Source: an uncultured Smithella sp. (lineage in GTDB: Bacteria > Desulfobacterota > Syntrophia > Syntrophales > Smithellaceae). From it: 64,000 nucleotides of DNA. Within the stretch, counting starts at the first letter, position 1. Each line of letters starts with the position of its first letter. The notes under the pieces are model-generated. The model did not search any database. It was given only the letters and a program-made list of their open reading frames with translations, and was not told the origin of the DNA. The DNA lies in the NCBI GenBank assembly GCA_964480875.1, contig CAYZRT010000001.1, positions 8,130-72,129 of the forward strand, read 5' to 3'. Below are positions 7,401-58,040 of this stretch, in pieces. Both the position numbers and the translations under genes were made by a program.

Positions 7401-7917
7401 AGTTTCCTTCACCGAAAATTTGCTGATAGTTGACAGCCGCCTTTTTTGCCCCTTCAATATTACCCCGCATAATCAGATCGGCAATTTCGCCCTGCAGGCA
7501 GGCGCTGGAAGCAATAAGCCCATCGTGACATTCCTTCAGCAGTTCTTTATCCACGCGCGGCCGGTAATAAAAACCCTTCAAAAAAGCCGTTGTCGTCAGC
7601 TTCATCAGATTTTTATAACCCTGCATGTTTTTAACAAGAACAATCAAGTGATTTGATTTTTCACTGGCCACTCTGTCTGTCAATTTATGGGGCGCGACAT
7701 ACAACTCACATCCGATGATCGGTTTTATGCCATGGTCAAAAGCCTGTTTATGAAAATCAATCGCTCCATACATGTTGCCATGATCGGTGATGGCCACAGC
7801 CGGCATTTTGAACTGTCGTGCCTTTTTGAAGACATCGTCCAGTCGAATCATTCCGTCCAGAAGACTGTATTGAGTATGGAGATGCAGATGTACAAATTCA
7901 GAGTGTTTCATAGTCAC
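4435..7917 (-). CDS. dnaE: DNA polymerase III alpha subunit
   Basis: 1160 aa. It has an N-terminal PHP domain (FVHLHLHTQYSLLDG), the polymerase core, and a C-terminal OB region. Confidence 0.97.
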   Translation of the reverse strand: MTMKHSEFVHLHLHTQYSLLDGMIRLDDVFKKARQFKMPAVAITDHGNMYGAIDFHKQAFDHGIKPIIGCELYVAPHKLTDRVASEKSNHLIVLVKNMQGYKNLMKLTTTAFLKGFYYRPRVDKELLKECHDGLIASSACLQGEIADLIMRGNIEGAKKAAVNYQQIFGEGNFYLEIMENGIPEQKIANAGLIEISKDLSIPLVATNDCHYLEKEHSEAHDVLLCIQTGKKITEQDRMSLSTDQFYFRSPEEMQQLFSSTPEAVSITVSIAEKCNFTPVEKGKFYLPNFTVKNPEETLNEYLERKAREGLEKLFPVILKNNQGDEAAIREKYKKRLNEELEIIKDMGFAGYFLIVSDFVKHAKHNDIPVGPGRGSAPGSLVAYAIRITNIDPIRYNLFFERFLNPSRRTMPDIDIDFCPEGRDNVIKYVTEKYGQDKVSQIITFGKMQAKGVIRDVGRALDIPYSEADRIAKLVPGMPLNITLDEAIKQEPRLAEEEKNNPTVAKLLSLSRILEGLNRHSSTHAAGVVISDAPLVERVPLCSSKDDVVSQYSMNDIQEVGLTKFDFLGLKTLTVIKNTLKFIRESKGIDLNIDTLPLNDKKTYELFTRGETDGIFQMESTGMTDVAVKLKPDCIEDIIALIALYRPGPMKMVPEFTSRKHGETKISYELPQLEAILKETYGIILYQEQVMQIASAIAGYSMAEADTLRKVMSKKKAAEMEKEKPKFLEGAHKRKINEARARKIWEQMETFAAYGFNKSHSTAYAIIAYQTAYLKAHYPVEFMAALLTSEKDNRDKIIKHMSACKEMNINVLPPDINESERDFTVFADNIRFGLAAIKNVGIAAIDSIISVRHEEKFNSFIDFLSRVDLRKVNKRVIESLIKCGAFDSLKYKRSQLIAHFEEAMDEVQRSQKEKDSNQSSFFEELDSSANMTQNGLKAYQIPDMPEWEHKKLLSIEREALGFYITGHPLLRFADRLKFVTNANSGNLNTRHDKETITVAGVVSAINERKTRRNDIMCYVTLEDLHGSINTIFFADLYKKYYDMLHDEEPVVVKGTLDISGTEETSKITLMAQEVVPLSKSLENPYKQVRFMVDANKVSPENISFFISSLKKFHGKYEGYMHILNGKSETIVYLGDDYRLDINDNLKKEADNILGEGATIYS

Positions 7918-7965: not shown

Positions 7966-9438
7966 CTAGTCTAACCAATAATTGGGCGCTTCCTTGGTTA
8001 TAATGACATCGTGGACATGACTTTCTTTCAAGCCAGCCTGGGTAATACGAACAAAACGCGCTTTTTCAATCATTTCCGGAATGGTTTTGCAACCGATATA
8101 TCCCATACCGGCTTTAAGGCCGCCGATGAGTTGGAGAATACTGGCGGAAAGAGAACCCCGGAAAGGAACCCTACCCTCTATTCCTTCGGGAACCATCTTC
8201 AACGGTCCTTCTATGTCATCCTGATAATACCGGTCACGGCTGCCCATTTTCATGGCTTCGAGAGAACCCATACCGCGATAGACTTTATAGCTTCGTCCCT
8301 GAAATAAAATTGTTTCTCCCGGACTTTCTTCCGTTCCGGCAAATAAACCACCGATCATGACACAGTTCGCGCCTGCGCCAATGGCTTTGACGATATCTCC
8401 GGAATATTTTATGCCGCCATCGGCAATGACGGGAATGCCTTTTTTCGAAGCAATTTTATAGGCGTCTCTGATGGCCGAGATTTGAGCCACACCTACACCG
8501 GCTATGATACGGGTGGTGCAAATGGAACCGGGGCCGACTCCCACCTTAACCGCATCTACTCCGGCATCTATCAGGGCCTTGGCGCCTGCCGCCGTTGCCA
8601 CGTTTCCGGCGATTAGTTCACATTTGGGGAAATTTGATTTTGTTGCTTTAATGGCTTTCAGCACTCCTTCGGAATGTCCATGGGATGTATCGATAGCGAT
8701 GACATCAACTCCCGCGGCAAGTAATGCTTCAACCCGGGCTTCCCGATCGATAATTCCCACGGCCGCGCCGACACGCAGTCTTCCCAGGGAATCTTTGCAG
8801 GCGTTGGGGTACTTGCGTATCTTTTCGATATCTTTAATTGTAATCAAACCTTTCAGCCGGTATTCATCGTCTACAACAAGCAATTTTTCAATTCTATGTT
8901 GATGAAGCAGTTTTTTGGATTCTTCCAGGGAAATGCTGGAAGACACCGTCACCAGATTTTTTTTCGTCATGACATTGGAAACAGGTTGATCCAAATTTTC
9001 TTCAAAACGTAAATCACGATTGGTAAGAATTCCGACAAGCTTTCCTTTCTTGACGACGGGTACACCGGATATGGAATATTGATTCATCAGTTTCAAAGCA
9101 TCACTGACTTTGCGGTCGGGTTCGATGGTGATCGGATCAACAACCATTCCGCTTTCCGATTTTTTGACTTTGTCCACTTCAATCGATTGCTGTTCTATGC
9201 TCATGTTGCGGTGGATGATGCCCATACCGCCTTCCTGAGCCATGCAGATGGCCGTTTGTGATTCTGTCACCGTATCCATGGCAGCGGAAACAATCGGAAT
9301 GTTCAAAGATATATTCTTTGTCAAGAATGTCGATGGATTGACATCTCGCGGTAAAACGTTGGATGCCGCTGGAACCAGCAGCACATCATCAAATGTTAAA
9401 GATTCTTTTATTGTGTCATCAAGCATTGTTTCCTCCAC
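7966..9438 (-). CDS. guaB: IMP dehydrogenase
   Basis: 490 aa with [10 protein letters not shown], a CBS pair and the catalytic GPGSICTTR loop. It appears to use a GTG start. Confidence 0.97.
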
Positions 9439-29494: not shown

Positions 29495-31159
29495 CTACAT
29501 CCTATCCGGTGCGTTGACGCCTAAAATAATCAAGGCATTTTGCAGGACGATTCTGACCGTTTTGATCAGGAAAAGCCTTGCCCGGGTCAATTTTCCGTCG
29601 TCGGAAATTACCTTGTTTTTGTTATAATAGCTATGAAAAACGGCCGCCAGTTCATTCAGATAAAAGGTGATGCGATGGGGCTCCAGGGTTTTGGCCGCGC
29701 CGTAAATCATTTCCGGATAGCGCACCAGCATTTTGATTAAATTAATCTCATCAGGCACTTTGAGCAGGAACGGATCAATCTCCGCGTAATCAGGCAGTTC
29801 AAACCCCTTTTCCTGAGCCATCCGGATAATACTGCAGATACGGGCATGCGAATACTGCACGTAATAAACAGGATTTTCATTGGATTGCTTTTTGGCCAGT
29901 TCCAGGTCAAAATCCAGATGGCTGTCGGAGCGCCGCATTAGAAAATTATAACGGGCGGCATCCCTGCCGACTTCGTCCAGAACCTCCCGCAACGTCACAA
30001 ATTCACCGGAGCGCGTCGACATCGCGACCGGAACTCCCCCGCGCAGCAGATTAACGAGCTGCACCAAAATTATTTTCAAATCTTCCTTCTTGTAACCCAG
30101 GGCCTGAATGCCCGCCCACACACGCGGCATATAGCCGTGATGGTCGGCGCCCCAGATGTCGATAAGCATTTCAAAACCCCGGGAAAACTTGTTTTGATGA
30201 TAGGCGATATCGGCGGCAAAATACGTGGGTTCGCCGTTTTTACGGATAACGACCCTGTCTTTTTCATCACCAAAGGCAGTCGTTTTGAACCACAGGGTTT
30301 CTCCGTCGGAATAAATGAATCCCTCCTTTTGCAGTTTGTCCAAAAGATTGTTCACGCCGTTGTTTTTATAAAGTTCCCGCTCGCTGAAATATTCGTCGAA
30401 CGCTACGCCGAAATCCTTCAAATCAACCTTGATTTCTTCCAGAATCAAACGGCCGGCGACATCGGTAAAATAAGGGATGGTCTTTTCTTCATCGGCCTGA
30501 AGATATTGGTCCCCTTCCCGCTCCCAAATGTCCCGCGCTATCTCTCGGATATAATCCCCCTGATAACAGGTTTCCGGAAATTCAATTTTCTCGCCGGTCA
30601 GTTCCCGGTAGCGCAACAGCACGGATTTTCCCAGATTGTTCATCTGGTTTCCGGCGTCATTGATATAGTATTCTTTGAATGCATTATATCCTGCCGTCTT
30701 CAAGAGGTTCGTGATGACATCGCCGACAACCGCGCCGCGCGCGTGACCGATATGCAGCGGCCCTGTGGGATTGGCGCTCACGAATTCCACCTGAACTTTT
30801 TTCCCCTGTCCCATCGTCAGACAGCCGTACTTTTCTTTCTGTTCATCGATGTTTTTTAACGCTTCAACCCAGACGTCGTTTTTGATAAAGAAGTTGATAA
30901 ATCCCGGTCCGGCAATTTGTGTCTTTTCGAGAATATTATCCTCATCGGATATGTTGTCCAGAATAATCTGGGCAATTTTTCGAGGATTTTGTTTGACGTG
31001 CGACGCCAGAATCATCGCGGCATTGGCGGCGTAATCGCCGTGCTGGGGATTGGCCGGCGGTTCCACTTCCAGATAAGGCAGGCTGAATTCGGGAAACAGG
31101 CCTTTCTGCCGGGAAACGTTTAAAGCGTTTTGCATTATTTTTACGATTTTATTTTTCAT
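29495..31159 (-). CDS. argS: arginine--tRNA ligase
   Basis: 554 aa with the class I signature ([14 protein letters not shown]) and the DALR anticodon-binding end. Confidence 0.97.
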
Positions 31160-31180
31160 TTTTCAGTCAATCCATCCATA

Positions 31181-31223
31181 TAAAAAAATGACAAGCAGCT
31201 ATAGTTATCATTTGCTGCTTGTC
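31181..31223 (-). terminator. rho-independent terminator
   Basis: The minus strand reads GACAAGCAGC-aaatgataactata-GCTGCTTGTC-ATTTTTTTA. It lies between the small Cys-rich ORF / pil region and argS. Confidence 0.8.
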
Positions 31224-31341
31224 ACTGCAAGTTTAACTGTTTTTTATTTTTCAGCGTAAACGGTCATCAAAAACGCACGCTCATTCCGCTATATGACGAA
31301 AATCACCTCACCGGTCCAAAATACAATCAGGCCCGCAATGA

Positions 31342-31515
31342 TTAAGCCTGCTGGTCCTTTTTCACCGCCTCGTCAATATCGCTGTCTCTAATGGACATGT
31401 CGCGCGAATAATCCGGGCAGCGCACGCATCCCTGGGCGTCCGTGGCAACACTGAACCTTTTTTGACAATTTGCTCTCCAGGCGCAGATCGCGCAATATTT
31501 CCGTTCTGAACTCAT
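31342..31515 (-). CDS. small Cys-rich protein, 57 aa (below the ORF-track cut-off)
   Basis: MSSERKYCAICAWRANCQKRFSVATDAQGCVRCPDYSRDMSIRDSDIDEAVKKDQQA. An AGGA lies 7 nt before the ATG. A candidate TTGACA-18-TAGTAA promoter is at 31632-31603, and an 8-bp inverted repeat pairs ggttacga with tcgtaacc (31558-31592). Confidence 0.45.
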   Translation of the reverse strand: MSSERKYCAICAWRANCQKRFSVATDAQGCVRCPDYSRDMSIRDSDIDEAVKKDQQA

Positions 31516-31659
31516 CGGCCCATCCTGCTGGAATTTATTTTTAAAATACTACGTTGCGGTTACGAACATGAACCATCTTCAGGCTCGTAACCTCTATGTG
31601 CATTACTACAAAAGAAACCTCTTTTATGTCAAGTCCTTTTAAAAGTTCACCTCTATATG

Positions 31660-34600
31660 TTATAAACGACGATCTCTCCAGTAAAGGACATTTGTCATAT
31701 TGGGCGGTTTGGGAGCTTCACCCATCGTTTGTGTCAGAGCCGAAGTTCCCGCTCCACCACTGGCGGTCACATAAATATCCGCGGCGGTGTACCCCGGGCG
31801 ATAAGACACCAGAACGGAAGAACCAACGCCATGGCCTACATAATCGGTTCTGTTTGCAACAGTATTATTGGCTGCCGCATGAGCATCTGCCGCAGCGGCG
31901 GCCGCAGCGGCGGCGAGGTCCATATCGCCCGGATTGGCAGCGGCTAATGCTGCCGCTCTCATATAGGCTTCTATGGCCGCGAGGGCAGTTGCGCTAAGCG
32001 TTGCATCCTGCATGCCGATGCCATAAAAACAATTAATTGCATAGAGAAAAGCATCTCCGGCTTCTCCGCAGGCGTTTCCCGTGCCTTGCTCGGGAGTATA
32101 TGTTGTAAAGTAGAGAATACTGTTGAACAAGGCCATATCGGAAATCATTTTTTCCCCTTGAGGACCGGTGATTGTCGTCCCGTCCGAACGCGTCAGTGAA
32201 TTGGTGGAAAGATTCATATACCATCCGCGCGCGCTGCTGAAATCAATCAGAGGATCTGACGTAACGTTGGCCAATTGAGACGAGGTATAGGTCGAAGAAA
32301 AATTGGTGTCTTCTTTGATTCCATACACCCTGTTTTTTGTCGCGCTGGTGTCCGGATCTGCAGTTGTCGGTTTATAGATGGGATCATAATTTTCGCCTGT
32401 GCCGAAATATATCCATATATAACCGTCAGTGTCTTTGGTTGCCACGGGCTGGGTAAATATCTGTTTATGCGTGTTGACGGGAGTAACCATGCCCGACCCT
32501 CTTTCCTCATTCGTCGAGCTGAAGAGACGGCTGCCGCTCCAGTTTGACGTATTGCAGGACGTGCAGGGCGATGCCGTGTAGCCGTCCGTTTTTCCGCAAT
32601 AGGAGCAATACGGATCTTTCGCGCATAGGCGGAAACGCCATATATTGCCTCCCAGGTCTCCCACATAGACCGTATCGACGAATCCGTCATTATCGATGTC
32701 AATGGGCAAAGGCGAGGACGCCAAGGAAAAATCCATATACGGACTGGTCGTTGACGTGACCGAGGAGCCGTGCGTAAAACTCCAGATGATGGAGCCATCG
32801 CTCAGATCCACGACAAAGAACCCTTTGCCGGAGCTGCCCGTTGCCGGCGTATTGCAGGCGGTCGAGGTTGTTCCGTCGGCTGACAGGCAGGCGGCCGAGC
32901 TGTATCCACCTCCGATGAACCCGACCCATTTTTCATTGCCGCCGATCTTGACGCGGCCGGTTTGCATTTTGCTCCAGGCTTGACCCAGAAAGGGCGCCTG
33001 TGAAGCATTTGGCATCAGGTGCCACTTGTATGTGGGGGTTGAAGCGGTTGAATCGGTCACATCCAGGGCGTACAAACCGCAGTAATAAGGGTAATTGGTC
33101 GCATCATACGTCCCGCTGAATCCGCCCGTGCTGGCCGAATAGCAGTTGGACGAACTGCTCCACAGATAATTTCCTGAACCCTGCCCTTCGCCGAAGACAG
33201 CCAGGGTTTTCCATTCGCAGTTGGCGGCGGATGTGCAGGTTTTGCTGATGCCGCTGCTGCTCGATGCAGGCAGCCAGGCATCAAATACATTGATGGGTCC
33301 GTCTATGAAAAAATCGTGGCTGCTCAGGGAAGCGCGATCGGCATGAGAATAATGAGCAATGGGTGACAGCTTCTGCAAAAGATTCGGAGGAATAAAGCTC
33401 CACAGTTCGTCGCCGCCTCCCGCACAATCCGTGCCGGAGCCGGAACTGCCTGTTTTAAAACAATGCAACTGACCGTCGTTGCCGCCGGCCAGAATAATCT
33501 GTGCGCCGTTGGCCGCATACCGCGGATGATAACTTCGAAATGCATTATATGATACCGCGTCGCATTCCCGCGGGTCGTAAAAGAATGGCTTGGGCGTCTT
33601 GACAATGGCGGGATTTGTATGGAACAAATCACCCAGTTTCCACACTTCTCCATTAACAAGCTCCAGATTGTACGCCGGATCGCCGCGGTAAAACCCGACC
33701 ACCGAATCTACCGTATGGAACGGGTGGCCGGTGATTCCCAGGTCGGCGGCCGTCAGATTGCCGGTTTCAAAACCGGTCATCACCCCGTTTTTCAGCGTCC
33801 ACATACTCCGGTCGGAGGCTTCTCTGATGCTTAACTTTTCACCCGCATCCCAACACTGGGGTGTTATAAGATTACCGTCGTTGCCGATCTGATATTTCTT
33901 CATATGCCCCGGCCAGAAGGGCTCTTTACTTGAACCGGAGTTGTTTTTGGGATCGAATGAAACTTCATAAATAAAATTTTCATCCTGAACGCGGGCCGCG
34001 GCAACCGAGGCCTGCGATGAAAAGGAATAAGTGGCTTCCGCGATCATGGTCAAAGCCGTTCGAACGGAGTTGACCAGTTCCTGAGGATTACTGGCCATAA
34101 ACGCGTATCCCCTTAACGTCTTATCCTTGGGATCGGTTCCGCTGGTGCAGGGATCGTCTCCCACGGTTACGGCGGCTGTGTCCCCCGACTGTGTTGCATT
34201 CGGATTTCTCGTTTCGCCGTAATAGGCGGCCCAGTTCAACGTGTCTTGCAGAGCAGTCGGCATATCGCCTCCGAAACCAACCACGTAAACCTTGTATCCG
34301 GCTTCGGCGGCCTTTTTCGCCCAGTAGACGGGGGCTCTTCGTTGCGCCGTGCAGGTTGTCGAACCGTTGCCACAACTATACCCGCCGGAACCGGGACACG
34401 AAAAAGTATCTTCTCCGTCGGTGATCAGAATAATGGATTTATTTCTGCACGAAGCGGCTGCGTCCAGTCCTCTATGATAGTCCAGAAATTTTTTGGATTC
34501 ATTCAGGGAGTCTCCAATGGGCGTTCCTCCGCTTATGCCATAGCCGGCAATGCATTCTCTGGCGGGATCAGTCGCGGAGCAGGAAGATGCCGTTGAGGCG

Positions 34601-35790
34601 CAGGACGCATCATTGCAGAACAGGCTTGCATAAGGCGTCGTGGTGGTATTGTCGCTTTGCGTCATGCTCCAGGAGAGCCTGGTGCAACCGTAGTCCCAGG
34701 GATTACTGTGGATGGTATCGTTGTCCTGGCTGCCGCAGTTGTAATAGCGCATTAATCCGATTCTCATGCCCAGGCTGGTCACGTCTGCCGACGTCAGGCT
34801 GTTGTCGCTCGTGTCATCCAATAATTGAAACAAGGCCCGTTTGGCGATTTTAATCTTGGAGCAATCCGTTCGTGTTCCGGTATCGTTATCATTATAAAAC
34901 GGACCTTCGCAAGTTTCCGTATCGCTGTATATATAACTTGACCCGGAGGGGGAACAGGCCTTGCTGCAATTTTGGCAGATCGTTGTATGGCCGGTTCCCG
35001 GTGTATTATAGAAAGGTCCGGTGGTGCAATCCGTTTCGCTGTAAACGACGGCGGGCGTTGTGCAGGTTGACGAAACGATACATTCCGTCGTATGGCCGGA
35101 TCCCGATGTTTTGTAGAAGGGACCGGTGGAACAGTCTGTTTCGGTATAACCGGGACCGAACGCCGCACACTGTCTGTACTTTTTACAGGCTGTCGTATGG
35201 CCGGATCCCGATGTTTTGTAGAAAGGACCGTTGTGACAGTTCGTGGCGGTATATACCGTATCCGGAATGTATGTACTGACGCGGCAATCTTTCGAGTGAT
35301 TCCTCCGATCGTAATCTCTATAAAAAGGACCATTTGTGGATCCACAACTTGAGCTTCTGTTGATGTAAAGATACCAACCCACGTCCAATTGGTCCGAACC
35401 CGGCGTCAAATAATAAGGCCCATCCACATTGCAGTCCGACCCGGCGACATAAAGATTTTGGGTGGTCATGGCGTCGCCCGACGGCGGGGTGGTGGTATAA
35501 GGGCCGTCGGAGCTGCAGTTGGCGGCTTCCACATAAAGAGTGGATGGCGTGCTTCTTACGACCGGATCGGCGTAATACGGTTCGACGCATGAGCTGCCGC
35601 AGGCATAGAACGTCGGATTCGAGCCATGCGGAAGCCACTGCATGCTTCCGGAGAGGTCGAGAACGATTAAGGCGTCGGGTTCCGTTGTAACCGTCCAGAG
35701 CGCGTCGTCATCGGCGTTAGAAAAAACGGAGAACAACGCGACGATGAGCACGACGATAATTGTTATATATATTTTTCTTAGCATAATCAT
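31660..35790 (-). CDS. pilY1: PilY1-like type IV pilus tip-associated adhesin with interrupted vWA domain and C-terminal beta-propeller
   Basis: 1376 aa with a signal peptide. The vWA/MIDAS elements are split (LIVLDLSGSM at aa 41-50, GGTPIGDSL at about 421-429, IILITDGED at about 453-461). The PilC/PilY1-type propeller has the Ca-site-like PIDIDNDGFVDTVYVGDLGGNIWRF. It follows pilX in the canonical fimU-pilVWXY1 order. Confidence 0.8.
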   Translation of the reverse strand: MIMLRKIYITIIVVLIVALFSVFSNADDDALWTVTTEPDALIVLDLSGSMQWLPHGSNPTFYACGSSCVEPYYADPVVRSTPSTLYVEAANCSSDGPYTTTPPSGDAMTTQNLYVAGSDCNVDGPYYLTPGSDQLDVGWYLYINRSSSCGSTNGPFYRDYDRRNHSKDCRVSTYIPDTVYTATNCHNGPFYKTSGSGHTTACKKYRQCAAFGPGYTETDCSTGPFYKTSGSGHTTECIVSSTCTTPAVVYSETDCTTGPFYNTPGTGHTTICQNCSKACSPSGSSYIYSDTETCEGPFYNDNDTGTRTDCSKIKIAKRALFQLLDDTSDNSLTSADVTSLGMRIGLMRYYNCGSQDNDTIHSNPWDYGCTRLSWSMTQSDNTTTTPYASLFCNDASCASTASSCSATDPARECIAGYGISGGTPIGDSLNESKKFLDYHRGLDAAASCRNKSIILITDGEDTFSCPGSGGYSCGNGSTTCTAQRRAPVYWAKKAAEAGYKVYVVGFGGDMPTALQDTLNWAAYYGETRNPNATQSGDTAAVTVGDDPCTSGTDPKDKTLRGYAFMASNPQELVNSVRTALTMIAEATYSFSSQASVAAARVQDENFIYEVSFDPKNNSGSSKEPFWPGHMKKYQIGNDGNLITPQCWDAGEKLSIREASDRSMWTLKNGVMTGFETGNLTAADLGITGHPFHTVDSVVGFYRGDPAYNLELVNGEVWKLGDLFHTNPAIVKTPKPFFYDPRECDAVSYNAFRSYHPRYAANGAQIILAGGNDGQLHCFKTGSSGSGTDCAGGGDELWSFIPPNLLQKLSPIAHYSHADRASLSSHDFFIDGPINVFDAWLPASSSSGISKTCTSAANCEWKTLAVFGEGQGSGNYLWSSSSNCYSASTGGFSGTYDATNYPYYCGLYALDVTDSTASTPTYKWHLMPNASQAPFLGQAWSKMQTGRVKIGGNEKWVGFIGGGYSSAACLSADGTTSTACNTPATGSSGKGFFVVDLSDGSIIWSFTHGSSVTSTTSPYMDFSLASSPLPIDIDNDGFVDTVYVGDLGGNIWRFRLCAKDPYCSYCGKTDGYTASPCTSCNTSNWSGSRLFSSTNEERGSGMVTPVNTHKQIFTQPVATKDTDGYIWIYFGTGENYDPIYKPTTADPDTSATKNRVYGIKEDTNFSSTYTSSQLANVTSDPLIDFSSARGWYMNLSTNSLTRSDGTTITGPQGEKMISDMALFNSILYFTTYTPEQGTGNACGEAGDAFLYAINCFYGIGMQDATLSATALAAIEAYMRAAALAAANPGDMDLAAAAAAAAADAHAAANNTVANRTDYVGHGVGSSVLVSYRPGYTAADIYVTASGGAGTSALTQTMGEAPKPPNMTNVLYWRDRRL

Positions 35791-35798
35791 TACCTCCT

Positions 35799-36362
35799 CT
35801 AATTTTCTCCTATTGGCACTGGACCGAATCCGACGCCAACCCCAACTTTTGCTTGTGTTTTATATGACTCGTTTTTTCCTACAACGGTTGTATCGTAACG
35901 CTGATATCCGTAAGACATAGCGCTTGAACCCCCTCCCGCTAATGAAAAACCTACGGCCTGCACGGGTGCTTTGTCCGTACTTTCACGGGGCGTGCAGACG
36001 GCGTATTCGGTGCGGGAATCCACTCCGCCGGGAATATCCATCCAGTCGTATAAGTTCTCGTTGAAATCATCCGTTCCGCAAACATTGTTGGAACCGTCGA
36101 GAGCATCGGTGTAATGATTGGCCGTTGTCCAGTTATCGGGTTCCGCATCTTTCATGATTTTGGAAACGCCGCTTTCCACGGCGGCCATCGCTTTTTTATG
36201 TCCCACGGCATCGCGACTGGTGAACAGATCCCCCGTGGACATGTTGATGACCAGTACCCCGATCGCGATCAGGATTAAACAGGCCATTAAAGCCGCCACA
36301 AGAGCGAAGCCTTTTTCATTTTCGGCATTATATGTCTTCATGATCATCCCACTATAAATCAT
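35799..36362 (-). CDS. pilX: PilX-like minor pilin
   Basis: 187 aa with a hydrophobic EKGFALVAALMACLILIAIGVL N-terminus that lacks Glu+5, as PilX_N proteins do. The ATG overlaps the pilW TGA (ATGA). Confidence 0.65.
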   Translation of the reverse strand: MIYSGMIMKTYNAENEKGFALVAALMACLILIAIGVLVINMSTGDLFTSRDAVGHKKAMAAVESGVSKIMKDAEPDNWTTANHYTDALDGSNNVCGTDDFNENLYDWMDIPGGVDSRTEYAVCTPRESTDKAPVQAVGFSLAGGGSSAMSYGYQRYDTTVVGKNESYKTQAKVGVGVGFGPVPIGEN

Positions 36363-37117
36363 TCTGTATAAAGCTTTGTAAAATGGTTGCGCGGTATGAC
36401 ACTTGTCGAATAGATAATCCGTCTCGGCGTCTGCTGTCCGGCATCCCTGGATGACGTATCCACCACCAGCGTAATTTCAATCCGCCTGATGGCCGGTATG
36501 CCCATTGTCGGATCGGTGGATCCGGTGGCAACGATTGCCGATATATCCGTGCCTGCGCCGTTGAAATACCGGAATACGGGTATTCCCGCCGCATCATTTT
36601 CCACGGAAACGGTTTTCGCTTTGTCGTCGTTACCTCCCAGCAAGGACTGTTGCCCCCCGCAATTGGTACCGTTGCCCGTTACGCGTGTTATGCGCCTGTT
36701 TGCCTTGTCATAATTGTACTTTATAATCTCACTCGGAGCATCGATGCGCCCATTTCCGTTTGCATCCGGGTCTGAAGGATCAGTGATGTCCATCTCTACG
36801 GCTATCGCATCGGCGGATGCTTCCTGAATCCCCCTGTTGATCGGGTTGGCGGCCGCACCGGTGCAGGCAGATGCATTGACCCACAGCCCCTCCAGCGATT
36901 CCGGATTGAAGGACGCCATCCGGATTTCCGCGGCCATTAATTCCAGCACGCCGCGCGCATCCTGTTGGGCGATGATTCTTCTCTCGATTCCCGACGATGA
37001 ACGAAGCGACATGTTGAGAAAAGAGTAAATGGCCGTCAGAACCAGCGAGGCAACGAACATCGCCACGATAAGTTCCACTAATGAAAAGCCTTTTTCTTCT
37101 TTCATAACTTTTAACAT
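36359..37117 (-). CDS. pilW: PilW-like minor pilin
   Basis: Prepilin signal MLKVMKEEKG/FSLVELIVAM. I chose the start at M24 of the tracked ORF because its ATG overlaps the pilV stop (TGATG). Confidence 0.65.
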   Translation of the reverse strand: MLKVMKEEKGFSLVELIVAMFVASLVLTAIYSFLNMSLRSSSGIERRIIAQQDARGVLELMAAEIRMASFNPESLEGLWVNASACTGAAANPINRGIQEASADAIAVEMDITDPSDPDANGNGRIDAPSEIIKYNYDKANRRITRVTGNGTNCGGQQSLLGGNDDKAKTVSVENDAAGIPVFRYFNGAGTDISAIVATGSTDPTMGIPAIRRIEITLVVDTSSRDAGQQTPRRIIYSTSVIPRNHFTKLYTE

Positions 37118-37560
37118 CAAAACCGGTAAGTCTCCTGACGGCTTACTTCGACGCTCTCGGAAATGCCTCTCGGGCTGCCCGTCCACGTCACGTTAACCGT
37201 CACCAAAAAAGCTTCCGGGTCCGCATTGGTTTGAGTGATAACCACACGAATCGTGTACTCTACATCCCCCCGTATCGGCGTGCTGCTTCCGCTTGTCGTG
37301 ACGGTTTTGTACGTTAATTCATTCCACTCCTGATCTCCGACGGAAACAGGATTGTTGGGGTTGGCAATGTCAACATAATACCTTTCCAATGTATTGTGCA
37401 GAATGCCCGCTGCCCGTCCCACATAGTCGGCTTTGGCCATCGACCTCCATCCCGTATCCTGAAGCGACGCCAGCGTTATCAAGCCGACGGAAATCAGCAT
37501 AATCGCAATAAGCACCTCGACCATGCTCATGCCTTTTTTATTACATGTTGTACTCAACAT
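37117..37560 (-). CDS. pilV: PilV-like minor pilin
   Basis: 147 aa with prepilin signal ..NKKG/MSMVEVLIAIMLISVGL. Confidence 0.65.
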   Translation of the reverse strand: MLSTTCNKKGMSMVEVLIAIMLISVGLITLASLQDTGWRSMAKADYVGRAAGILHNTLERYYVDIANPNNPVSVGDQEWNELTYKTVTTSGSSTPIRGDVEYTIRVVITQTNADPEAFLVTVNVTWTGSPRGISESVEVSRQETYRF

Positions 37561-38014
37561 ACGTTTTTCCCGTAATCGTGCTGGTAATGATAGCCTGAGA
37601 CCCTCTGTCGTTTTCTATTGTAACGCTTCCGTTCGAACAGATTCCCCGCGCCCGACATTCAATATTATCGCCGGCATAGGTGATGTCGTCTATTCTCACC
37701 CCTGAACTCAATCCCAGCGTTGAAGGGCTCTTTGTTTCCACGGTCGCATAAGCGCTGCAATCGTTGTTTCCCCTCTCAATGACATAGTTATTATTGCTTT
37801 CACTGAATGTGATACGGTGGCATAACCCTCTCGACACGGCTTGTTGTTTTATTTTGGCGATATCCGTTGTTATGGCCCGGGTATAACTTCGTAAATCAGC
37901 GTTGCTCACAAAACGTTTCCAGCTTAACGATGCGATAACGCCCACAATGGCAATGATAGCCAGTACTATTAAAATTTCAATCAGGGTCATGCCTTTTACA
38001 TTCGTAATTTTCAC
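37541..38014 (-). CDS. fimU: FimU/GspH-family minor pilin
   Basis: 157 aa from a GTG start, with prepilin signal MKITNVKG/MTLIEILIVLAIIAI. It overlaps pilV by 20 nt. Confidence 0.65.
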   Translation of the reverse strand: MKITNVKGMTLIEILIVLAIIAIVGVIASLSWKRFVSNADLRSYTRAITTDIAKIKQQAVSRGLCHRITFSESNNNYVIERGNNDCSAYATVETKSPSTLGLSSGVRIDDITYAGDNIECRARGICSNGSVTIENDRGSQAIITSTITGKTYVEYNM

Positions 38015-38232: not shown

Positions 38233-39003
38233 TCAATAGTCCCAGATGATAAACCTCATAAAATCGGCTCCCCAGAAAATATAAGCCACGGCAGCGGCGG
38301 ATAAAAAAGGGCCGAAGGGAATCGCATACTTTGTATCCTGTTTTTTGATAATCATGGCCGCAACACCGATCACTGCCCCCGACAATGAACTGAATAAAAG
38401 AATGAAAATGAGCGATTTCCAGCCGAGAAATCCACCGATCATGGCCAGTAATTTTATATCGCCGCCGCCCATCCCCTCTCTTTTGGTAATCAATTCATAA
38501 ACGAATGCAATGATAAAAAGAACACCCCCGCCAATCAACAAACCCAGCAGGACTTCCGTCCAGGGAATTTTGACAATGAAAACAGCCGCCAGAAAAAATA
38601 TGGGGATGCCGGGCAACGTCAAAATATCGGGGATGATTTGATGATCCCAATCAATGAATGTAATGACAATCAGTACGGCGGTAAAAATGAAAAAAATAAA
38701 GAAATTCAGGGAAAGACCGAACTTTAAAAATAACAGCAACGTCATCATTGCTGTAATGAATTCCACCAGTGGATAGCGAAATGAAATCTTGTTCCCGCAA
38801 TCACGGCATTTGCCGCGCAGAAGAAAATAGCTGATGATCGGAATGTTGTCCCCGTAACGTATTGCGTGCTGACAATTAGGACACTGAGATGACGGTTTGA
38901 TGATTGATTTATGTTCCGGAAGCCGGAAAATGCAAACATTCAGAAAACTGCCTACCGCAGCGCCAAAAATAAAAGCTAAACTATTCATTAGAAATAACAT
39001 CAT
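38233..39003 (-). CDS. pilD: prepilin peptidase / N-methyltransferase (A24 family)
   Basis: 256 aa with CPNC..CRDC zinc motifs in the N-terminal domain. It is polytopic and has the GGGDIKLLAMIG aspartyl-protease motif. Confidence 0.92.
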   Translation of the reverse strand: MMLFLMNSLAFIFGAAVGSFLNVCIFRLPEHKSIIKPSSQCPNCQHAIRYGDNIPIISYFLLRGKCRDCGNKISFRYPLVEFITAMMTLLLFLKFGLSLNFFIFFIFTAVLIVITFIDWDHQIIPDILTLPGIPIFFLAAVFIVKIPWTEVLLGLLIGGGVLFIIAFVYELITKREGMGGGDIKLLAMIGGFLGWKSLIFILLFSSLSGAVIGVAAMIIKKQDTKYAIPFGPFLSAAAVAYIFWGADFMRFIIWDY

Positions 39004-39376: not shown

Positions 39377-39700
39377 GTTTGTCCTTTTTGTTGAGCCGGC
39401 TAATGGGGTTGCTGGGTTTGCCCCTCTTGTCGAGCCTGCTCTTGCTGGGGTTGTCCTTCTTGTTGAGCCTGCTGTTGTCGAGTTTGTTCCTCTTGTTGTG
39501 GCCCCTGCTGTGGTTGCTGGGGTTGTCTTTCTTGTTGAGTCTGCTGTTGTCGAGTTTGTTCCTCTTGTTGTGGCCCTTGCTGTGGTTGCTGGGTTTGTCT
39601 TTCTTGTTGAGCCTGCTGTTGTCGAGTTTGTTCCTCTTGTTGTGGCCCCTGCTGTGGTTGCTGGATTTGTCCCTCTTGTTGGGGTCTCTGCTGTGGTTGC
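39377..39700. repeat. 72-bp tandem repeat (about 4.5 copies) inside the Gln-rich CDS
   Basis: Unit boundaries at about 39377, 39449, 39521, 39593 and 39665, with a few substitutions per copy. The repeat keeps several frames open on both strands. Confidence 0.85.
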
Positions 39701-39921
39701 GATGGGCCATAATCAGAGTATTTTAAAACACATTTTTCCATGCCATCTTGGGGGCTGCTCGTTATGATTATATTGCCATCACGGTCGATACAGCTGTATA
39801 GATCTCCCGCATAGCCTGAGGATAGAAAAACTACAATTATGCATGGTATTAGAAATACGGGTTTCATTTTAATTGTGTTCCTATCAAATGGTTGATCTCC
39901 AATCATGTTCCGTTTTCCCAC
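39400..39921 (-). CDS. secreted DUF4124-like protein with Gln-rich 24-aa tandem repeats
   Basis: 173 aa with a hydrophobic signal-like segment (VFLIPCIIVVFLSSGYA) and DLYSCIDRDGNIIITSSP..C (DUF4124-like). It then has about 3.5 copies of QQPQQGPQQEEQTRQQQAQQERQT. Confidence 0.7.
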   Translation of the reverse strand: MGKRNMIGDQPFDRNTIKMKPVFLIPCIIVVFLSSGYAGDLYSCIDRDGNIIITSSPQDGMEKCVLKYSDYGPSQPQQRPQQEGQIQQPQQGPQQEEQTRQQQAQQERQTQQPQQGPQQEEQTRQQQTQQERQPQQPQQGPQQEEQTRQQQAQQEGQPQQEQARQEGQTQQPH

Positions 39922-53783: not shown

Positions 53784-56700
53784 ATGAAAACATTGGGAAT
53801 TAACATAGGCTCTTCCAGTGTCAAGGTGATATTGCTGGACGGGAATGATGATATATTGTGGACAAAAGTTGAACCTCATGAGGGCAACTTTGTTCAAACA
53901 CTGGGGAACATATTATCTCAGTCTGATATTTCATCAGACATTCCTGCCCTTGCGACAGGCACCGAAGGCCGGCATCTTTTAAACATTAACAGCGAGATAG
54001 AACCTCTATGCATCGAAGCAGTTTTGCAACATCTTAATCAGAATATCGACGCGCTGGTTTCCTTAGGCGGCGAGGATCTGATTGTCTATACGATAGACGA
54101 ATATCAAAGAATAATAACAAGTTTTTCCGGCAATAAATGCGCATCGGGCACAGGCGAATTCTTTAAACAACAGCTCGCCAGGATGAATATGGACGTACGG
54201 GACGTCAATTCTATTCCGGAGCAATGTCAGGTTTTAACATTATCGTCGCGATGCTCTGTCTTTATGAAAAGTGATTGCACGCATCGTTTGAATAAGGGCG
54301 AAGCCCAAAGAGGAGATATCGTTCTTTCTCTAAGTGATGTCATGGCAACGAAAGTTGTCGATTTTATTAAAAAAGCAAAAATAACAAACAAGAAAGTCTT
54401 TCTCGTCGGTAAAGCAACCGAAAATAAACATCTCATCCGTTTTATCCGGGAGCGCATGCCGGAAAATAAATTCATCGTTCCATCCCAGGCCGCATATTTT
54501 GAAGCATACGGCGCTGCGTTGCTGGCCAGAACTTCTGGCAGTAAAATACCCTCTCTGAAAAATCTCTTCAAACCCGACAGGGTTCAGTTTAAGAGATTCA
54601 AAAGCTTGAAAACGGCGGAAGGAAAAGTAACTTATCTCCCATCTAAAAAAGCAAAAGTCCTGGCCGGGAAAGAATACATTCTCGGCGTTGACGGTGGATC
54701 AACGACAACCAAAGCCTGCTTGGTAGATATGGAAACAAATGAGATAGCGGCTTCCTTTTATGGCCGCACGCATGGCGATCCTGTCAAAGCTTTGAAAAAT
54801 TGTTTTCTCGAAATGCAGAAACAAATCAAAAAAGATATTGGAGAGGGTAAGATAAGCATAACGTTGGCTGCCACGACCGGATCTTCAAGGGAACTGCTGG
54901 GCGTATTCCTGGAAACGCCAGCCGTATACAATGAAATCATCGCTCATGCCGTTGGCACAACTTTTTATCAAGACAATATTGATACCCTATTCGAAATCGG
55001 CGGTCAGGATGCAAAATATGTCTATTTAAAAAACAAAGTTCCCATAGATTATGCCATGAATGAAGCCTGCTCTGCCGGAACCGGTTCTTTTCTTGAAGAA
55101 TCCGCACAAGGCGATTTAAGCATCCCTGACGCGAGGGAAATTGGTGAGATCGCTCTTCTCGCCAAAGAACCTTTGAAATTCGGTGAGCACTGTTCCGCAT
55201 TTATAAATTCAGATGTCCGTAAAGCAATTCAGCAAGGTGCGTCACGCGAAGACATTACGGCGGGAATTGTCACGTCCATCGTTTCCAATTATCTTAATCG
55301 TGTTGTTGGCAACAGAACGATTGGAGAAAACATTGTTTTGCAGGGAGGCGTAGCCAAAAATAAAGCCGTTCCTCTGGCTTTTGCAATGCTTCTGGATAAG
55401 AATATACTGGTTCCACCCGATCCTGAACTGATGGGTTGTTTTGGTGTTGCCATTCTGGCAAAACAAAAACTTAAAGAAGGCGTTCTTGCCAAATCTCAAT
55501 ATGACTTAGAAAAAATTCTGGACACAAACATTATTTACGGAAAGGATTTCAAATGTAAATCCTGTGATAATTTCTGTCCCATACGAGTTTTGAATGTCAA
55601 TAATCATTCGTACATGTTTGGAGGCCGTTGCAACAAATATACGAATATCCGCAAAAAAAATGTTTTCAATGAAAGTGAGTGTACCGATTACATTGAAAAA
55701 CGAAATGATATTATTTTTCATCAATGTGCGCCAGATTCCGATAAACTGATCAGGAAAAAAGATTTTGTCGTCGGAATTCCTCGCTGTTTTTCATTTTATA
55801 CGCTTTGGCCTTTATATGCTTGGTTCTTCCATTGGTTGGGTGTGGAAACAGTGGTTTCCGAAGAAATATTACAAGATGGAACTGCTCGCGTGGAAAGCAA
55901 TTATTGTTTCCCGGCAGAAATTGCTCATGGCGCTGTGCAGGATATTGTTAACCGCCATTGTGATTATATTTTCCTGCCTCATTTTCGTGACATGGAAAGC
56001 TATGAGAAGAGTGTCCCGGCAAATTTTTGTCCGATAACTCAGAGTCTGCCATATTATATTCAGAAAGCTTTTCCTGAAATATCCCGGGAAAGATATTTAA
56101 TGCCTGTTGTAAGTTTTATGCACGGAATGAAAAAGGCCGCCGAGCCGTTTATTACTATGGCGGTAAAGCTGGGCTTTCGTGAATCTGAGGCACAGGAAGC
56201 ATTTTCCCTGGCTTTTGAAAAGCAGATGGATTGTTTTGCCAGATTTTCCGAACTGGGCAGGCAAGCTTTAAAAGAAGCACGTGCATCTCAACGGCCCGTT
56301 ATTGCGATTCTGGGACGACCGTATAACTCCTTTACAACGGATGCTAACATGGGCGTACCCCGTAAATATTCATCGCGCGGTTACTGCGTCATTCCTTTTG
56401 ATATTCTTCCGTTTGAAGACCAGCCTATTTATCAGAATATGTACTGGTATTACGGACAACAGGACATGAAATCGGCCTCTTTTTTAAAAAAGGAGGACAA
56501 TATTTTTGTGACCTTCATATCCAATTTCTCCTGCGCGCCCGATTCCTTTATGCTTCATTATCTTAAGTGGATTATGGGCGTAAAACCCTTTCTAATTTTG
56601 GAACTGGACTCCCACACCGCCGATGCCGGCGTGGATACCCGTATTGAAGCTTTTCTGGATATCATCGAAGGCTATCGCTCCAAAATCGGCGATATCCGTG

Positions 56701-58040
56701 AAACCAGATATGATAACGGTCTTCGTTTCATCAATAAACCCGGCGAAGACATTCACATCAAAAATAATCATACCGGTGAAAAAATACCCATTAAAAACAA
56801 TTCCCGCGTTAAGTTGCTGCTATCCAATATGGGACGATTGTCTGCGGAGCTCATGGGAGCTTCGATTCGCGGTTTCGGCATCAACGCCGAAACCATGCCC
56901 GTGCCCGATATCTATACGCTGCAACTCGCCCGCAATCACGCATCCGGCAAGGAATGTCTGCCGTCTCATCTCGTTTTGGGCAGCGTTCTCAAATATTTAT
57001 ATTCTGAAAAATACCGTAAAGATGAAATTTACCTGCTCTTTGTTCCAACAACCACCGGTCCGTGTCGCACCGGTCAATATTTCGTTTTTTATGATAATCT
57101 CTTCAAGGATTTGCGTTTTGAAAATGTTGTCGTCATTACTCTCGATGCGGACAATTCCTATAACGAATTAGGAGCGGAATTTTCCAAATACGCTTGGTGG
57201 GCGATTCTGATCGGCGATTACATGAAAGATATAGAAACATCTTTGCGGACCTGCGCGGTTGATCCTCAAAAAGCGATGAGGGAATACGATAAAATCTGGC
57301 AAAAGATGATAAAAGTGGCGGATCAAAATGTTACAAACATGCTGCCCGTGTTAAAAGAAATATCTCTCGATATCAGCACAATACCTTTGAAGAAAAAACT
57401 AGATGATTGCCCTAAGATATTAATTGTTGGAGAAATTTACGTGCGACGCGATGATTTCGCAGTCGATGAACTTATCGGGATTCTAAGTAAAAGAGGAATC
57501 ATCGGCAAGGTTTCCAATGTGGCCGAATGGGTGTACTATTGTGACTTTGTTCGTCACTACGAATTTAAAAAATGTCTCGCCCTCCATCCCTGGCACAAGC
57601 GAATCTTCTCCCGCGAATCAACGGATATCATCAAATGGGAAATCGAGCACCGATATAAAAAGAAGGTAGAAAAAAATATTCGCGAAACGCTCCTCCCTAC
57701 CGGACTCGTGCCGGATTCACCGCATAACATGAAAGAAATCATGCGCAACACCGAAAAGCATTTTGTCAGTCATGAGTTATATTCCGAGATCAGCATTTCC
57801 AGCGGCGTCGCCGCCACAGCCATGATGGACGGATACGCGGGCATCATCAATATTTCACCCTTTGCCTGCTTGATCGGCCGGGTTATTGAAGGCGTTCTGA
57901 CTCCGTGGGCGAGAGAAAGAAAATATCCCGTTTTATCCATTGAAATCGATGGAAATCTTTTACCTCCCAACGTTATCAATAAACTGGAAATATTCATGCT
58001 CAATGTATTAAGATTTAAAAACGACAAGGATTTGAATTGA
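53784..58040 (+). CDS. fused double BcrAD/BadFG/HgdC-type activase ATPase plus dehydratase-like (DUF2229-type) domains
   Basis: 1418 aa with two acetate/sugar-kinase-fold ATPase modules (aa 1-255 and 298-560). Each carries the cluster-bridging Cys pair (NKCASGTG/SRCSVF; EACSAGTG/EHCSAF). A CxxCxxC..C patch follows at about aa 590-620, then about 800 aa of activase-associated domains. Confidence 0.8.
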   Translation: MKTLGINIGSSSVKVILLDGNDDILWTKVEPHEGNFVQTLGNILSQSDISSDIPALATGTEGRHLLNINSEIEPLCIEAVLQHLNQNIDALVSLGGEDLIVYTIDEYQRIITSFSGNKCASGTGEFFKQQLARMNMDVRDVNSIPEQCQVLTLSSRCSVFMKSDCTHRLNKGEAQRGDIVLSLSDVMATKVVDFIKKAKITNKKVFLVGKATENKHLIRFIRERMPENKFIVPSQAAYFEAYGAALLARTSGSKIPSLKNLFKPDRVQFKRFKSLKTAEGKVTYLPSKKAKVLAGKEYILGVDGGSTTTKACLVDMETNEIAASFYGRTHGDPVKALKNCFLEMQKQIKKDIGEGKISITLAATTGSSRELLGVFLETPAVYNEIIAHAVGTTFYQDNIDTLFEIGGQDAKYVYLKNKVPIDYAMNEACSAGTGSFLEESAQGDLSIPDAREIGEIALLAKEPLKFGEHCSAFINSDVRKAIQQGASREDITAGIVTSIVSNYLNRVVGNRTIGENIVLQGGVAKNKAVPLAFAMLLDKNILVPPDPELMGCFGVAILAKQKLKEGVLAKSQYDLEKILDTNIIYGKDFKCKSCDNFCPIRVLNVNNHSYMFGGRCNKYTNIRKKNVFNESECTDYIEKRNDIIFHQCAPDSDKLIRKKDFVVGIPRCFSFYTLWPLYAWFFHWLGVETVVSEEILQDGTARVESNYCFPAEIAHGAVQDIVNRHCDYIFLPHFRDMESYEKSVPANFCPITQSLPYYIQKAFPEISRERYLMPVVSFMHGMKKAAEPFITMAVKLGFRESEAQEAFSLAFEKQMDCFARFSELGRQALKEARASQRPVIAILGRPYNSFTTDANMGVPRKYSSRGYCVIPFDILPFEDQPIYQNMYWYYGQQDMKSASFLKKEDNIFVTFISNFSCAPDSFMLHYLKWIMGVKPFLILELDSHTADAGVDTRIEAFLDIIEGYRSKIGDIRETRYDNGLRFINKPGEDIHIKNNHTGEKIPIKNNSRVKLLLSNMGRLSAELMGASIRGFGINAETMPVPDIYTLQLARNHASGKECLPSHLVLGSVLKYLYSEKYRKDEIYLLFVPTTTGPCRTGQYFVFYDNLFKDLRFENVVVITLDADNSYNELGAEFSKYAWWAILIGDYMKDIETSLRTCAVDPQKAMREYDKIWQKMIKVADQNVTNMLPVLKEISLDISTIPLKKKLDDCPKILIVGEIYVRRDDFAVDELIGILSKRGIIGKVSNVAEWVYYCDFVRHYEFKKCLALHPWHKRIFSRESTDIIKWEIEHRYKKKVEKNIRETLLPTGLVPDSPHNMKEIMRNTEKHFVSHELYSEISISSGVAATAMMDGYAGIINISPFACLIGRVIEGVLTPWARERKYPVLSIEIDGNLLPPNVINKLEIFMLNVLRFKNDKDLN

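Follow-up and report, generated by a model that had tools for sequence, protein, structure and literature searches.

A tandem cysteine-rich repeat array in the MIDAS loop of a PilY1 pilus-tip protein from an uncultured Smithella

Background

What a type IV pilus binds and senses is thought to be decided by the N-terminal domain of its PilY1 protein; to our knowledge no structure of such a domain has been solved, and how diverse these domains are has been little explored. The pilY1 gene of an uncultured Smithella sp., located in the 64,000-nucleotide stretch of contig CAYZRT010000001.1 analysed here (positions 8,130 to 72,129; hereafter the window), raises the question of how such a domain accommodates, and what it may gain from, an insertion of about 260 residues placed directly behind the MIDAS (metal ion-dependent adhesion site) of a von Willebrand factor A (vWA) domain. 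The insertion is an array of eight small Cys-rich units, confidently predicted to fold, which differs in unit number between related genomes and in sequence between near-identical strains, and which may form a specificity-determining arm of the pilus tip.

Architecture of the repeat array and the split vWA domain

Translation of 31660-35790 (minus strand) places the MIDAS motif DLSGSM at residues 45-50 (window 35641-35658), KIKIAKRALFQLL from residue 312, GGTPIGDSL at residues 421-429 and IILITDGED at residues 453-461, all as given in an earlier, sequence-only reading of this DNA, in which the interval singled out (34861-35628) corresponds to residues 55-310. The array begins straight after DLSGSM and lies between the MIDAS and helix alpha1 of the vWA domain. 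Its extent and units are as follows.

34858-35640, minus strand: Cys-rich repeat array, residues 51-311 (261 residues, eight units, 18 Cys)
35542-35625, minus strand: unit 1, residues 56-83, degenerate (C64, C68)
35458-35541, minus strand: unit 2, residues 84-111, degenerate (single C92)
35371-35457, minus strand: unit 3, residues 112-140, degenerate (single C120)
35263-35370, minus strand: unit 4, residues 141-176, long-spacer type (C149, C169)
35158-35262, minus strand: unit 5, residues 177-211 (C185, C202, C208)
35053-35157, minus strand: unit 6, residues 212-246 (C220, C237, C243)
34936-35052, minus strand: unit 7, residues 247-285 (C255, C272, C275, C279)
34858-34935, minus strand: unit 8, residues 286-311 (C294 and the invariant C310), counterpart of the single ancestral unit

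The units share the consensus xxYxxxxCxxGPFYxxSGxGHTTxC. The motif C-x(1-5)-P[FY][YT] occurs eight times, beginning at residues 64, 92, 120, 149, 185, 220, 255 and 294, whereas 20,000 shuffles of the same composition held 0.16 such motifs on average and never more than three. The full pattern of Y, C, GPFY, SGxGHT and C is present in units 4-8; in units 1-3 the 'LYV...C..GPY' half remains but the closing Cys is gone (Cys counts 2, 1 and 1). The sequence-only reading had described seven or eight repeats, each ending in a Cys: eight units are indeed there, but the closing Cys belongs to units 4-8 and not to the degenerate first three. Additional Cys occur in and between units, and the block is rich in Thr, Ser, Gly and Tyr, with Ser, Thr, Gly and Asn together making up 41% of it.

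The segments flanking the array were modelled together with it, and the following features were assigned to them.

35641-35676, minus strand: segment with a strand of the AlphaFold2 model (model residues 14-19) and D45, S47 and S49 (AlphaFold2, conservation)
34036-34857, minus strand: remainder of the vWA domain, residues 312-585 (AlphaFold2 order, Foldseek, invariant residues, sub-threshold Pfam VWA match); helix alpha1 is at residues 312-324 by AlphaFold2 secondary structure
34522-34524, minus strand: MIDAS residue T423
34417-34419, minus strand: MIDAS residue D458
34543-34746, minus strand: family-wide Cys-rich loops, residues 349-416 (conserved columns)

Of the MIDAS residues, D45, S49, T423 and D458 never vary across 114 sequences, and S47 hardly does. 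The AlphaFold2 model of residues 26-620, made with 113 homologues, has a mean predicted local distance difference test score (pLDDT) of 88.0 and a predicted template modelling score (pTM) of 0.75, and runs in the order beta1, about 260 residues containing only short strands, alpha1, beta2, beta3, the canonical alternation of strands and helices, and a long C-terminal helix. When this N-terminal model was compared with the PDB by Foldseek, vWA domains filled almost the whole list, including PitA (first, E 5e-5), SpaC (third), the S. sanguinis vWA pilin PilB, ITIH1, ANTXR2 and TRAP, with target-normalised template modelling (TM) scores of 0.5-0.63 for single-domain targets. With the array excised, the Pfam family VWA (PF00092) scored 14.9 bits, below its cut-off of 23.8, and seven of nine homologues likewise scored below threshold, at 15-22 bits. 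The N-terminal domain is, by predicted fold and motif, a divergent vWA domain, and at the same level the two flanks of the array form one vWA fold, as the sequence-only reading had proposed in describing a vWA domain split by an insertion; its further remark that the Cys-rich stretch at residues about 350-415 is atypical was overstated, since that stretch is conserved throughout the family.

Directly after alpha1 lies an EF-hand-like loop, DDTSDNSLTSAD (residues 325-336, window 34783-34818), for which the family consensus is DDNxDNTIxSxD with an invariant D336; several homologues give weak Pfam EF-hand matches at the equivalent position. Judged from this pattern, the loop may be an additional Ca2+ site near the base of the array.

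Predicted fold and novelty of the array

Modelled alone (AlphaFold2, residues 51-315, 34 sequences), the array reaches a pLDDT of 90.3 and a pTM of 0.71, and within the larger vWA model its pLDDT is 85-95. The model consists of short beta strands throughout, except for one helical turn of four residues. As the array is modelled confidently by itself, it would be a self-contained folded unit and not a linker.

Comparisons with known families and structures placed the repeat, which the sequence-only reading had not recognised from described PilY1/PilC proteins, in no described family. Pfam searches of the array alone found no family at E <= 10, and an NCBIfam scan of the whole protein found no match in the array region. 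PDB sequence searches with the unit profile and the array (E <= 10) yielded one noise match only, and with the family profile only the PilY1 propeller structure 3hx6. The array model likewise had no significant Foldseek match in the PDB (best E 0.38, TM 0.12) or among the viral predicted folds of BFVD; the TNF-receptor-like proteins CD40 and DcR3 and a poxvirus TNFR-like protein appeared as non-significant noise (E 1-7, TM 0.09-0.15).

A unit profile of 29 positions was built from 102 units (consensus xxYxxxxCxxGPFYxxSGxGHTTxCxxxx). Because these units had been picked by regular expression, the motif columns look more conserved than they are. In a search of 1.84 billion cluster representatives the profile matched 29 proteins at E <= 1e-3; the 17 that were inspected are all PilY1 N-termini of the same Syntrophales-type family, or frameshifted pieces of them. 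The module therefore appears to be specific to this PilY1 lineage, and the array, having no relative in the libraries searched, is a probable new small-repeat fold and a candidate new domain.

Unit number and origin of the array

The stretch between the MIDAS and alpha1 comes in discrete lengths among homologues, corresponding to one, two, four, or eight to nine units at the orthologous locus, together with an alternative loop.

Loop of about 33 residues, 2 Cys: one unit (e.g., ...NIWGDASCNGPFYSSSGTGHTTNCSRLAIAK)
Loop of about 70 residues, 4 Cys: two units
Loop of about 145 residues, 8 Cys: four units
Loop of 260-304 residues, 18-22 Cys: eight to nine units, some with an extra Cys/Trp-rich insert
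Loop of about 45 residues, 4-6 Cys: alternative loop without GPFY

The number of Cys in the loop is even in 176 of 181 sequences, which are not independent samples, and the modal values are 2, 4, 6, 8, 18, 20 and 22; these even counts argue strongly for disulfide pairs. All loop classes are found at one syntenic locus, pilD-fimU-pilV-pilW-pilX-pilY1-argS. The extra insert of some eight-unit alleles (P0004 and P0005, from loci L082, L001 and L003) is about 40 residues long and Cys/Trp-rich (...EEREVCVRRCIFFYCWNDCHMET...), lies between units 4 and 5, and raises the loop to 22 Cys. The alternative loop of about 45 residues (e.g., CIPDTTNCSGYYYNCSGGYCGSSKTNCSTNC) occupies the same post-MIDAS site in P0022, P0034, P0041, P0058, P0112 and P0119, making the site a hot spot of different Cys-rich elaborations.

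In every array it is the final unit that most resembles the single basal one, and unit 4 of the Smithella protein is most like the first unit of two-unit proteins; the array is therefore an amplified form of a pre-existing MIDAS-proximal loop. In a neighbour-joining tree of 871 non-array columns, eight-unit proteins group in a single clade of 26, apart from one stray, four-unit, one-unit and alternative-loop forms are interleaved in a sister clade, and two-unit forms dominate a more distant clade. Each unit has its positional counterpart in the other members of the eight-unit clade, at 40-72% identity, and the array is accordingly old in this clade. Growth by block doubling (one to two to four to eight) was rejected, because the units of four-unit arrays are ordered long, long, short, short and do not alternate; single units, and not whole arrays, seem to have been duplicated.

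At the DNA level, three copies of 83 nucleotides start at 34964, 35069 and 35174, 105 nucleotides apart and 67-71% identical to the reference copy. Tandem Repeats Finder, run on the gene, reported nothing in the array, the copies being too divergent at the DNA level. The sequence-only reading had noticed about 35 shared base pairs roughly 105 base pairs apart; this similarity is real and amounts to an exact run of 32 nucleotides present in two units.

35087-35118, plus strand: exact 32-nucleotide run, copy in unit 6
35192-35223, plus strand: exact 32-nucleotide run, copy in unit 5

Units 5 and 6 use the same codon at 15 of 18 shared residues, units 5 and 7 at 7 of 15, and codon usage by itself would produce the run with a probability of about 8e-6. 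Related locus L005 has a comparable run of 26 nucleotides between two units, and L002 a run of only 11. The recent duplication that had been suggested to explain the similarity is ruled out by the orthology of all eight units across the clade, the identity being local (compare the codons of units 5 and 7), and the likeness of units 5 and 6 is better explained by sporadic local gene conversion within the gene.

Divergent PilY1 heads in near-identical strains

Two closely related contigs, L081 and L082, which encode the homologues P0003 and P0004, were compared as DNA, with the following results.

From PilY1 residue about 843 to a point at least 1 kb past argS: 100% identity
About 900 nucleotides upstream of pilY1: 90-97% identity, within a 5.7-kb upstream block that is 97.45% identical overall
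Most of PilY1 residues about 50-490 (L081 positions 6148-7476): 28-65% identity
One 150-nucleotide window around alpha1, residues about 307-356: 81% identity

One allele has 18 Cys in an array of 260 residues and the other 22 Cys in 302 residues, and for both divergent heads closer relatives exist in other genomes. Unless the contigs are chimeras, the pattern indicates that the adhesin head was replaced by recombination between near-identical strains. That L082 was assembled in three samples argues against a chimera.

Across loci, PilD and ArgS are mostly 60-81% identical, as against 24-63% for the minor pilins, and the minor pilins and PilY1, judging from such identities, evolve faster than PilD and ArgS. 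The pattern of a diverse vWA domain on a conserved C-terminus is the same as that reported for PilY1 of P. aeruginosa (PMC8806160).

Identity of the protein and its gene cluster

The gene that carries the array, the conserved parts of its product and its upstream neighbours are listed here.

31660-35790, minus strand: pilY1 coding sequence, 1376 residues (open reading frame; PF05567, E 1.8e-12, residues 905-1163)
35713-35790, minus strand: signal peptide, residues 1-26, MIMLRKIYITIIVVLIVALFSVFSNA followed by DDD (putative cleavage site, by inspection)
32302-33078, minus strand: core of the PilY1 beta-propeller (Pfam match to residues 905-1163; PDB 3hx6)
35799-36362, minus strand: pilX-like gene, upstream of pilY1 (Pfam/NCBIfam)
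36359-37186, minus strand: pilW-like gene, upstream of pilY1 (Pfam/NCBIfam)
37117-37560, minus strand: pilV, upstream of pilY1 (Pfam/NCBIfam)
37541-38014, minus strand: fimU/gspH-like gene, upstream of pilY1 (Pfam/NCBIfam)
38233-39003, minus strand: prepilin peptidase gene pilD, beyond the minor-pilin genes (PF06750 and PF01478)

The match to PF05567 (47.4 bits, cut-off 28.1) makes the protein a member of the PilY1/PilC family, and the only PDB sequence relative found is the C-terminal domain of P. aeruginosa PilY1, 3hx6 (phmmer E 3e-10 with the single sequence, E 7e-37 with the family profile). DIDNDGFVD (residues 1031-1039, 32674-32700, minus strand) aligns with DNNSDGVAD of 3hx6 and fits the EF-hand-like pattern DxDxDGxxD of the PilY1 propeller, being a putative Ca site. 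The NCBIfam equivalog of Neisseria PilC, NF040838, scores 22.5 bits against a cut-off of 350, and the protein is by this measure a relative of PilC and not its equivalog. The NCBI-derived sequence P0001 is 100% identical and, at 1374 residues, two residues shorter.

Four open reading frames directly upstream on the same strand have N_methyl, PilX_N, PilV and GspH-like matches, and pilY1 stands at the end of a pilD-fimU-pilV-pilW-pilX-pilY1 cluster, followed downstream by argS, a SPOR-domain gene and ffh. This neighbourhood, with minor pilins and PilD on one side and argS, SPOR and ffh on the other, identifies the gene as the pilY1 of a type IVa pilus tip operon in the core chromosome. Many of the related loci retrieved have the same order, pilD-fimU-pilV-pilW-pilX-pilY1-argS, with all array classes represented; among the 76 related loci with any match, most carry pilV and pilW, and fewer carry pilX and fimU. 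No second pilY1 copy was found in the window. The nearest genomes are metagenome-assembled genomes of uncultured Smithella, Syntrophaceae and Syntrophales from digesters, sediments and peat, and farther relatives belong to the Nitrospirota. The protein is the tip-located PilY1 of a type IVa pilus in a Smithella/Syntrophales-like anaerobe, in agreement with the family assigned to it before any of these searches.

Among features of the gene outside the vWA domain, an Ala-rich insert (...AAIEAYMRAAALAAANPGDMDLAAAAAAAAADAHAAANN..., residues 1262-1313, window 31852-32007) is absent from all 11 homologues compared; the tract, which had already been called atypical, is private to this protein among them. 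It lies in a loop that varies between homologues (poly-Thr in P0007), and Tandem Repeats Finder locates within it a 12-nucleotide tandem repeat, GCCGCAGCGGCG, in 2.2 copies (31889-31914). An RGD tripeptide in VVGFYRGDPAYN (residues 702-704, window 33685-33693) falls, in the alignment with 3hx6, on a position where P. aeruginosa PilY1 also reads RGD, and the family consensus there is RGE. In these environmental anaerobes the tripeptide looks like a conserved structural feature rather than an adaptation to host integrins.

A possible function for the array

We consider it somewhat more probable than the opposite that the array is a disulfide-stapled arm on the binding face of the vWA domain and sets the specificity of the adhesin. 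In this model, the loop between the MIDAS DxSxS and alpha1 would originally have held one small Cys-closed module, Y-x4-C-x2-GPFY-x2-SGxGHT-x2-C, with one presumed disulfide per module. Tandem amplification to eight modules, followed by their divergence, would have produced an all-beta block of about 260 residues, predicted to fold by itself, whose ends are anchored at the MIDAS end of beta1 and at the start of alpha1. Both anchors lie on the MIDAS face in the standard vWA topology, so the array would project from the metal-binding, ligand-binding face, and with PilY1 located at the tip it would be the most distal part of the pilus. A rigid, stapled arm of this kind could enlarge and reshape the surface that contacts ligands around the MIDAS, decide which partner cells, polymers or surfaces the tip targets, and keep its shape under the force of retraction. 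The evolvable parts would be unit number and unit sequence, with the module exchanged or diversified between strains while the propeller, by which PilY1 docks onto the minor pilins, stays constant.

Several considerations weigh against this model. How the cysteines pair and which way the array points with respect to the MIDAS are inferred, and the hosts are strict anaerobes, which bears on whether disulfides form. The conserved Y, GPFY, SGxGHT and C may be purely structural. The comparison between strains was made with metagenome contigs that are possibly chimeric. Finally, the array is, as far as the alignments tell, about as conserved as the rest of the protein within the eight-unit clade (with P0002, 72% identity in the array and 67% elsewhere) and is not hypervariable at all timescales.

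The explanation that comes closest is mechanical, though we think it unlikely: the array might limit or gate the extension of the vWA domain under retraction load, bearing or sensing force without contacting a ligand, a role suggested earlier for P. aeruginosa PilY1 with its Cys-rich vWA domain. The conserved even Cys counts and the rigid, confidently predicted all-beta repeat would suit such an element, and in P. aeruginosa Cys152 and Cys147 of the vWA domain affect force-induced conformational change and cyclic di-GMP signalling (PMC8806160); yet a pure spacer is not expected to differ sharply between near-identical strains, nor to switch at the same site between one, two, four and eight units or an unrelated Cys-knot-like loop. 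A mechanical role is compatible with the arm and hard to tell apart from it. Lower still is the probability, decidedly small in our estimation, of an immunodominant or phage- or predator-facing shield that masks the MIDAS and is diversified for escape, with no part in binding. Replacement of exactly the head region between strains, the frequent turnover of array classes between close relatives by gain, loss or exchange, and the fast evolution of pilus-tip genes relative to their flanks are what such a decoy would predict, but the eight-unit layout has been kept at every position through deep divergence, to about the same degree as the propeller, and even the shortest form of the loop retains a conserved unit, which suggests a positive function.

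It is very improbable that each unit is a metal or redox module, in which the two Cys and the His of SGxGHT bind a metal or carry out thiol chemistry, perhaps linked to extracellular or interspecies electron transfer. Each canonical unit does have two Cys and one His, and a preprint links type IV pili of Syntrophus with direct interspecies electron transfer (bioRxiv 10.1101/479683). The His, however, is replaced in about 30% of units (H in 70, Y in 18 and R in 7 of 98), units 1-3 lack both it and the second Cys, three ligands make no standard Zn or Fe site, and the even parity of Cys is better suited to disulfides; with no CxxCH heme motif in PilY1 and a variable His, a heme or metal site was rejected. 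Scarcely credible, in turn, is that the block is no domain at all and forms a low-complexity, partly disordered linker rich in Ser, Thr and Gly, whose motif recurs by composition. Its Ser, Thr, Gly and Asn content of 41% and the blank result of Tandem Repeats Finder might be read that way, but eight motifs against the 0.16 expected from shuffles, a pLDDT of 90, invariant Cys and Tyr columns and even Cys parity do not fit it, and a disordered linker is excluded by the shuffles together with the confident model of the array alone.

Relation to known systems

PilY1/PilC tip proteins with an N-terminal vWA domain (P. aeruginosa, Legionella, the M. xanthus PilY1.3 type and Cys-rich myxobacterial proteins) resemble the Smithella protein in their propeller, vWA domain with MIDAS, fimU-pilVWX operon and many Cys. 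Cys-rich PilY1 proteins of myxobacteria reach a clade median of up to about 41 Cys (PMC13190605), and in P. aeruginosa 7 of the 11 Cys of PilY1 lie within the vWA domain, where diversity is high and Cys are functionally important (PMC8806160). None of the described PilY1 proteins has a tandem repeat array in the MIDAS-alpha1 loop, and the Smithella protein differs from other vWA-bearing PilY1 also in that its vWA domain falls below the Pfam VWA threshold and its unit profile is confined to 29 proteins. The word 'repeat' is absent from a 2026 survey of PilY1 diversity in myxobacteria (PMC13190605), MIDAS-loop tandem repeats are mentioned neither there nor in PMC8806160, and the top-ranked papers of a literature search joining PilY1 with Smithella or Syntrophus-group names make no mention of PilY1. 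Thus, what was already known is a Cys-rich, vWA-bearing PilY1, and what is new here is a set of tandem repeats in its MIDAS loop, not a new class of system.

The closest functional analogy is to the tip adhesins of sortase-assembled pili (RrgA, GBS104, SpaC and PitA), in which the vWA domain is likewise elaborated by beta-rich arms beside the MIDAS. In the Gram-positive tip pilins RrgA and GBS104, variable arms inserted in the vWA domain make up, together with the MIDAS, a trench or cradle and are believed to set ligand specificity, and such arms, the most variable part of these proteins, have been proposed to define ligand binding (PMC7893114). These pili are built by sortase and linked by isopeptide bonds, whereas the pilus here is of type IV, and no membership is claimed; the Gram-positive arms, unlike the array, are neither tandem repeats nor disulfide-rich, and neither Foldseek nor PDB sequence searches found any similarity of sequence or fold between them and the array. 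Small disulfide-held modules of short beta strands, like those presumed for the array, also make up the Cys-rich domains of TNF receptors and the EGF-like and furin-like repeats, but these disulfide-ladder repeats have a different Cys spacing and motif, and Foldseek values of E 1-7 and TM 0.09-0.15 amount to no real structural match. The I-like domain of integrin beta subunits has a DLSxSM-type MIDAS and, as is proposed for the array, a Cys-closed specificity element, a loop, on the ligand-binding face. That loop is single and short and has another insertion point, and the likeness does not imply homology.

Other features of the window

The block argS-pilY1-pilX-pilW-pilV (window about 29500-37600) has a GC content at third codon positions (GC3) of 0.53-0.60, as against 0.40-0.47 in nine other genes and 0.49 in fimU and pilD, and its bulk GC content is 0.49-0.52, as against mostly 0.39-0.44 in the rest of the window. 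Codon bias and gene transfer are both possibilities for the raised GC3 of this block. An open reading frame of 173 residues (39400-39921, minus strand), which has no Pfam match, encodes a hydrophobic N-terminus followed by about four tandem Q/P/E-rich units (QQPQQGPQQEEQTRQQQAQQE...), and the mirror open reading frames on the opposite strand are by-products of this repeat. A protein of 1418 residues (53784-58040, plus strand) combines a BcrAD/BadFG ATPase with DUF2229 (CoA enzyme activase) and is unrelated to the array; such proteins are typical of anaerobe radical-enzyme activators.

Implications

Type IV pili of Syntrophus have been tied to interspecies interactions and direct interspecies electron transfer (bioRxiv 10.1101/479683). 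Partner cells and the matrix of aggregates are speculative candidates for what the arm might contact in syntrophs. A bolder proposal, which we hold as doubtful, is that an undescribed, autonomous, disulfide-laddered beta-repeat fold, arising by amplification of the MIDAS loop, is the organ by which Syntrophales pili recognise partners or substrates, and that it is tuned by unit number (1, 2, 4, 8-9) and by recombinational swapping of heads. If this were true, the array and head swapping together would constitute a cassette-like variation system for an environmental pilus adhesin.

The natural variants with one, two, four and eight units at one locus offer a ready series for asking how a MIDAS-adjacent loop controls adhesion or force. 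The existence of near-identical strains that differ almost only in the head points to strain-level selection on contact between cells or between cells and surfaces, and such contact is central to metabolism in methanogenic syntrophic communities.

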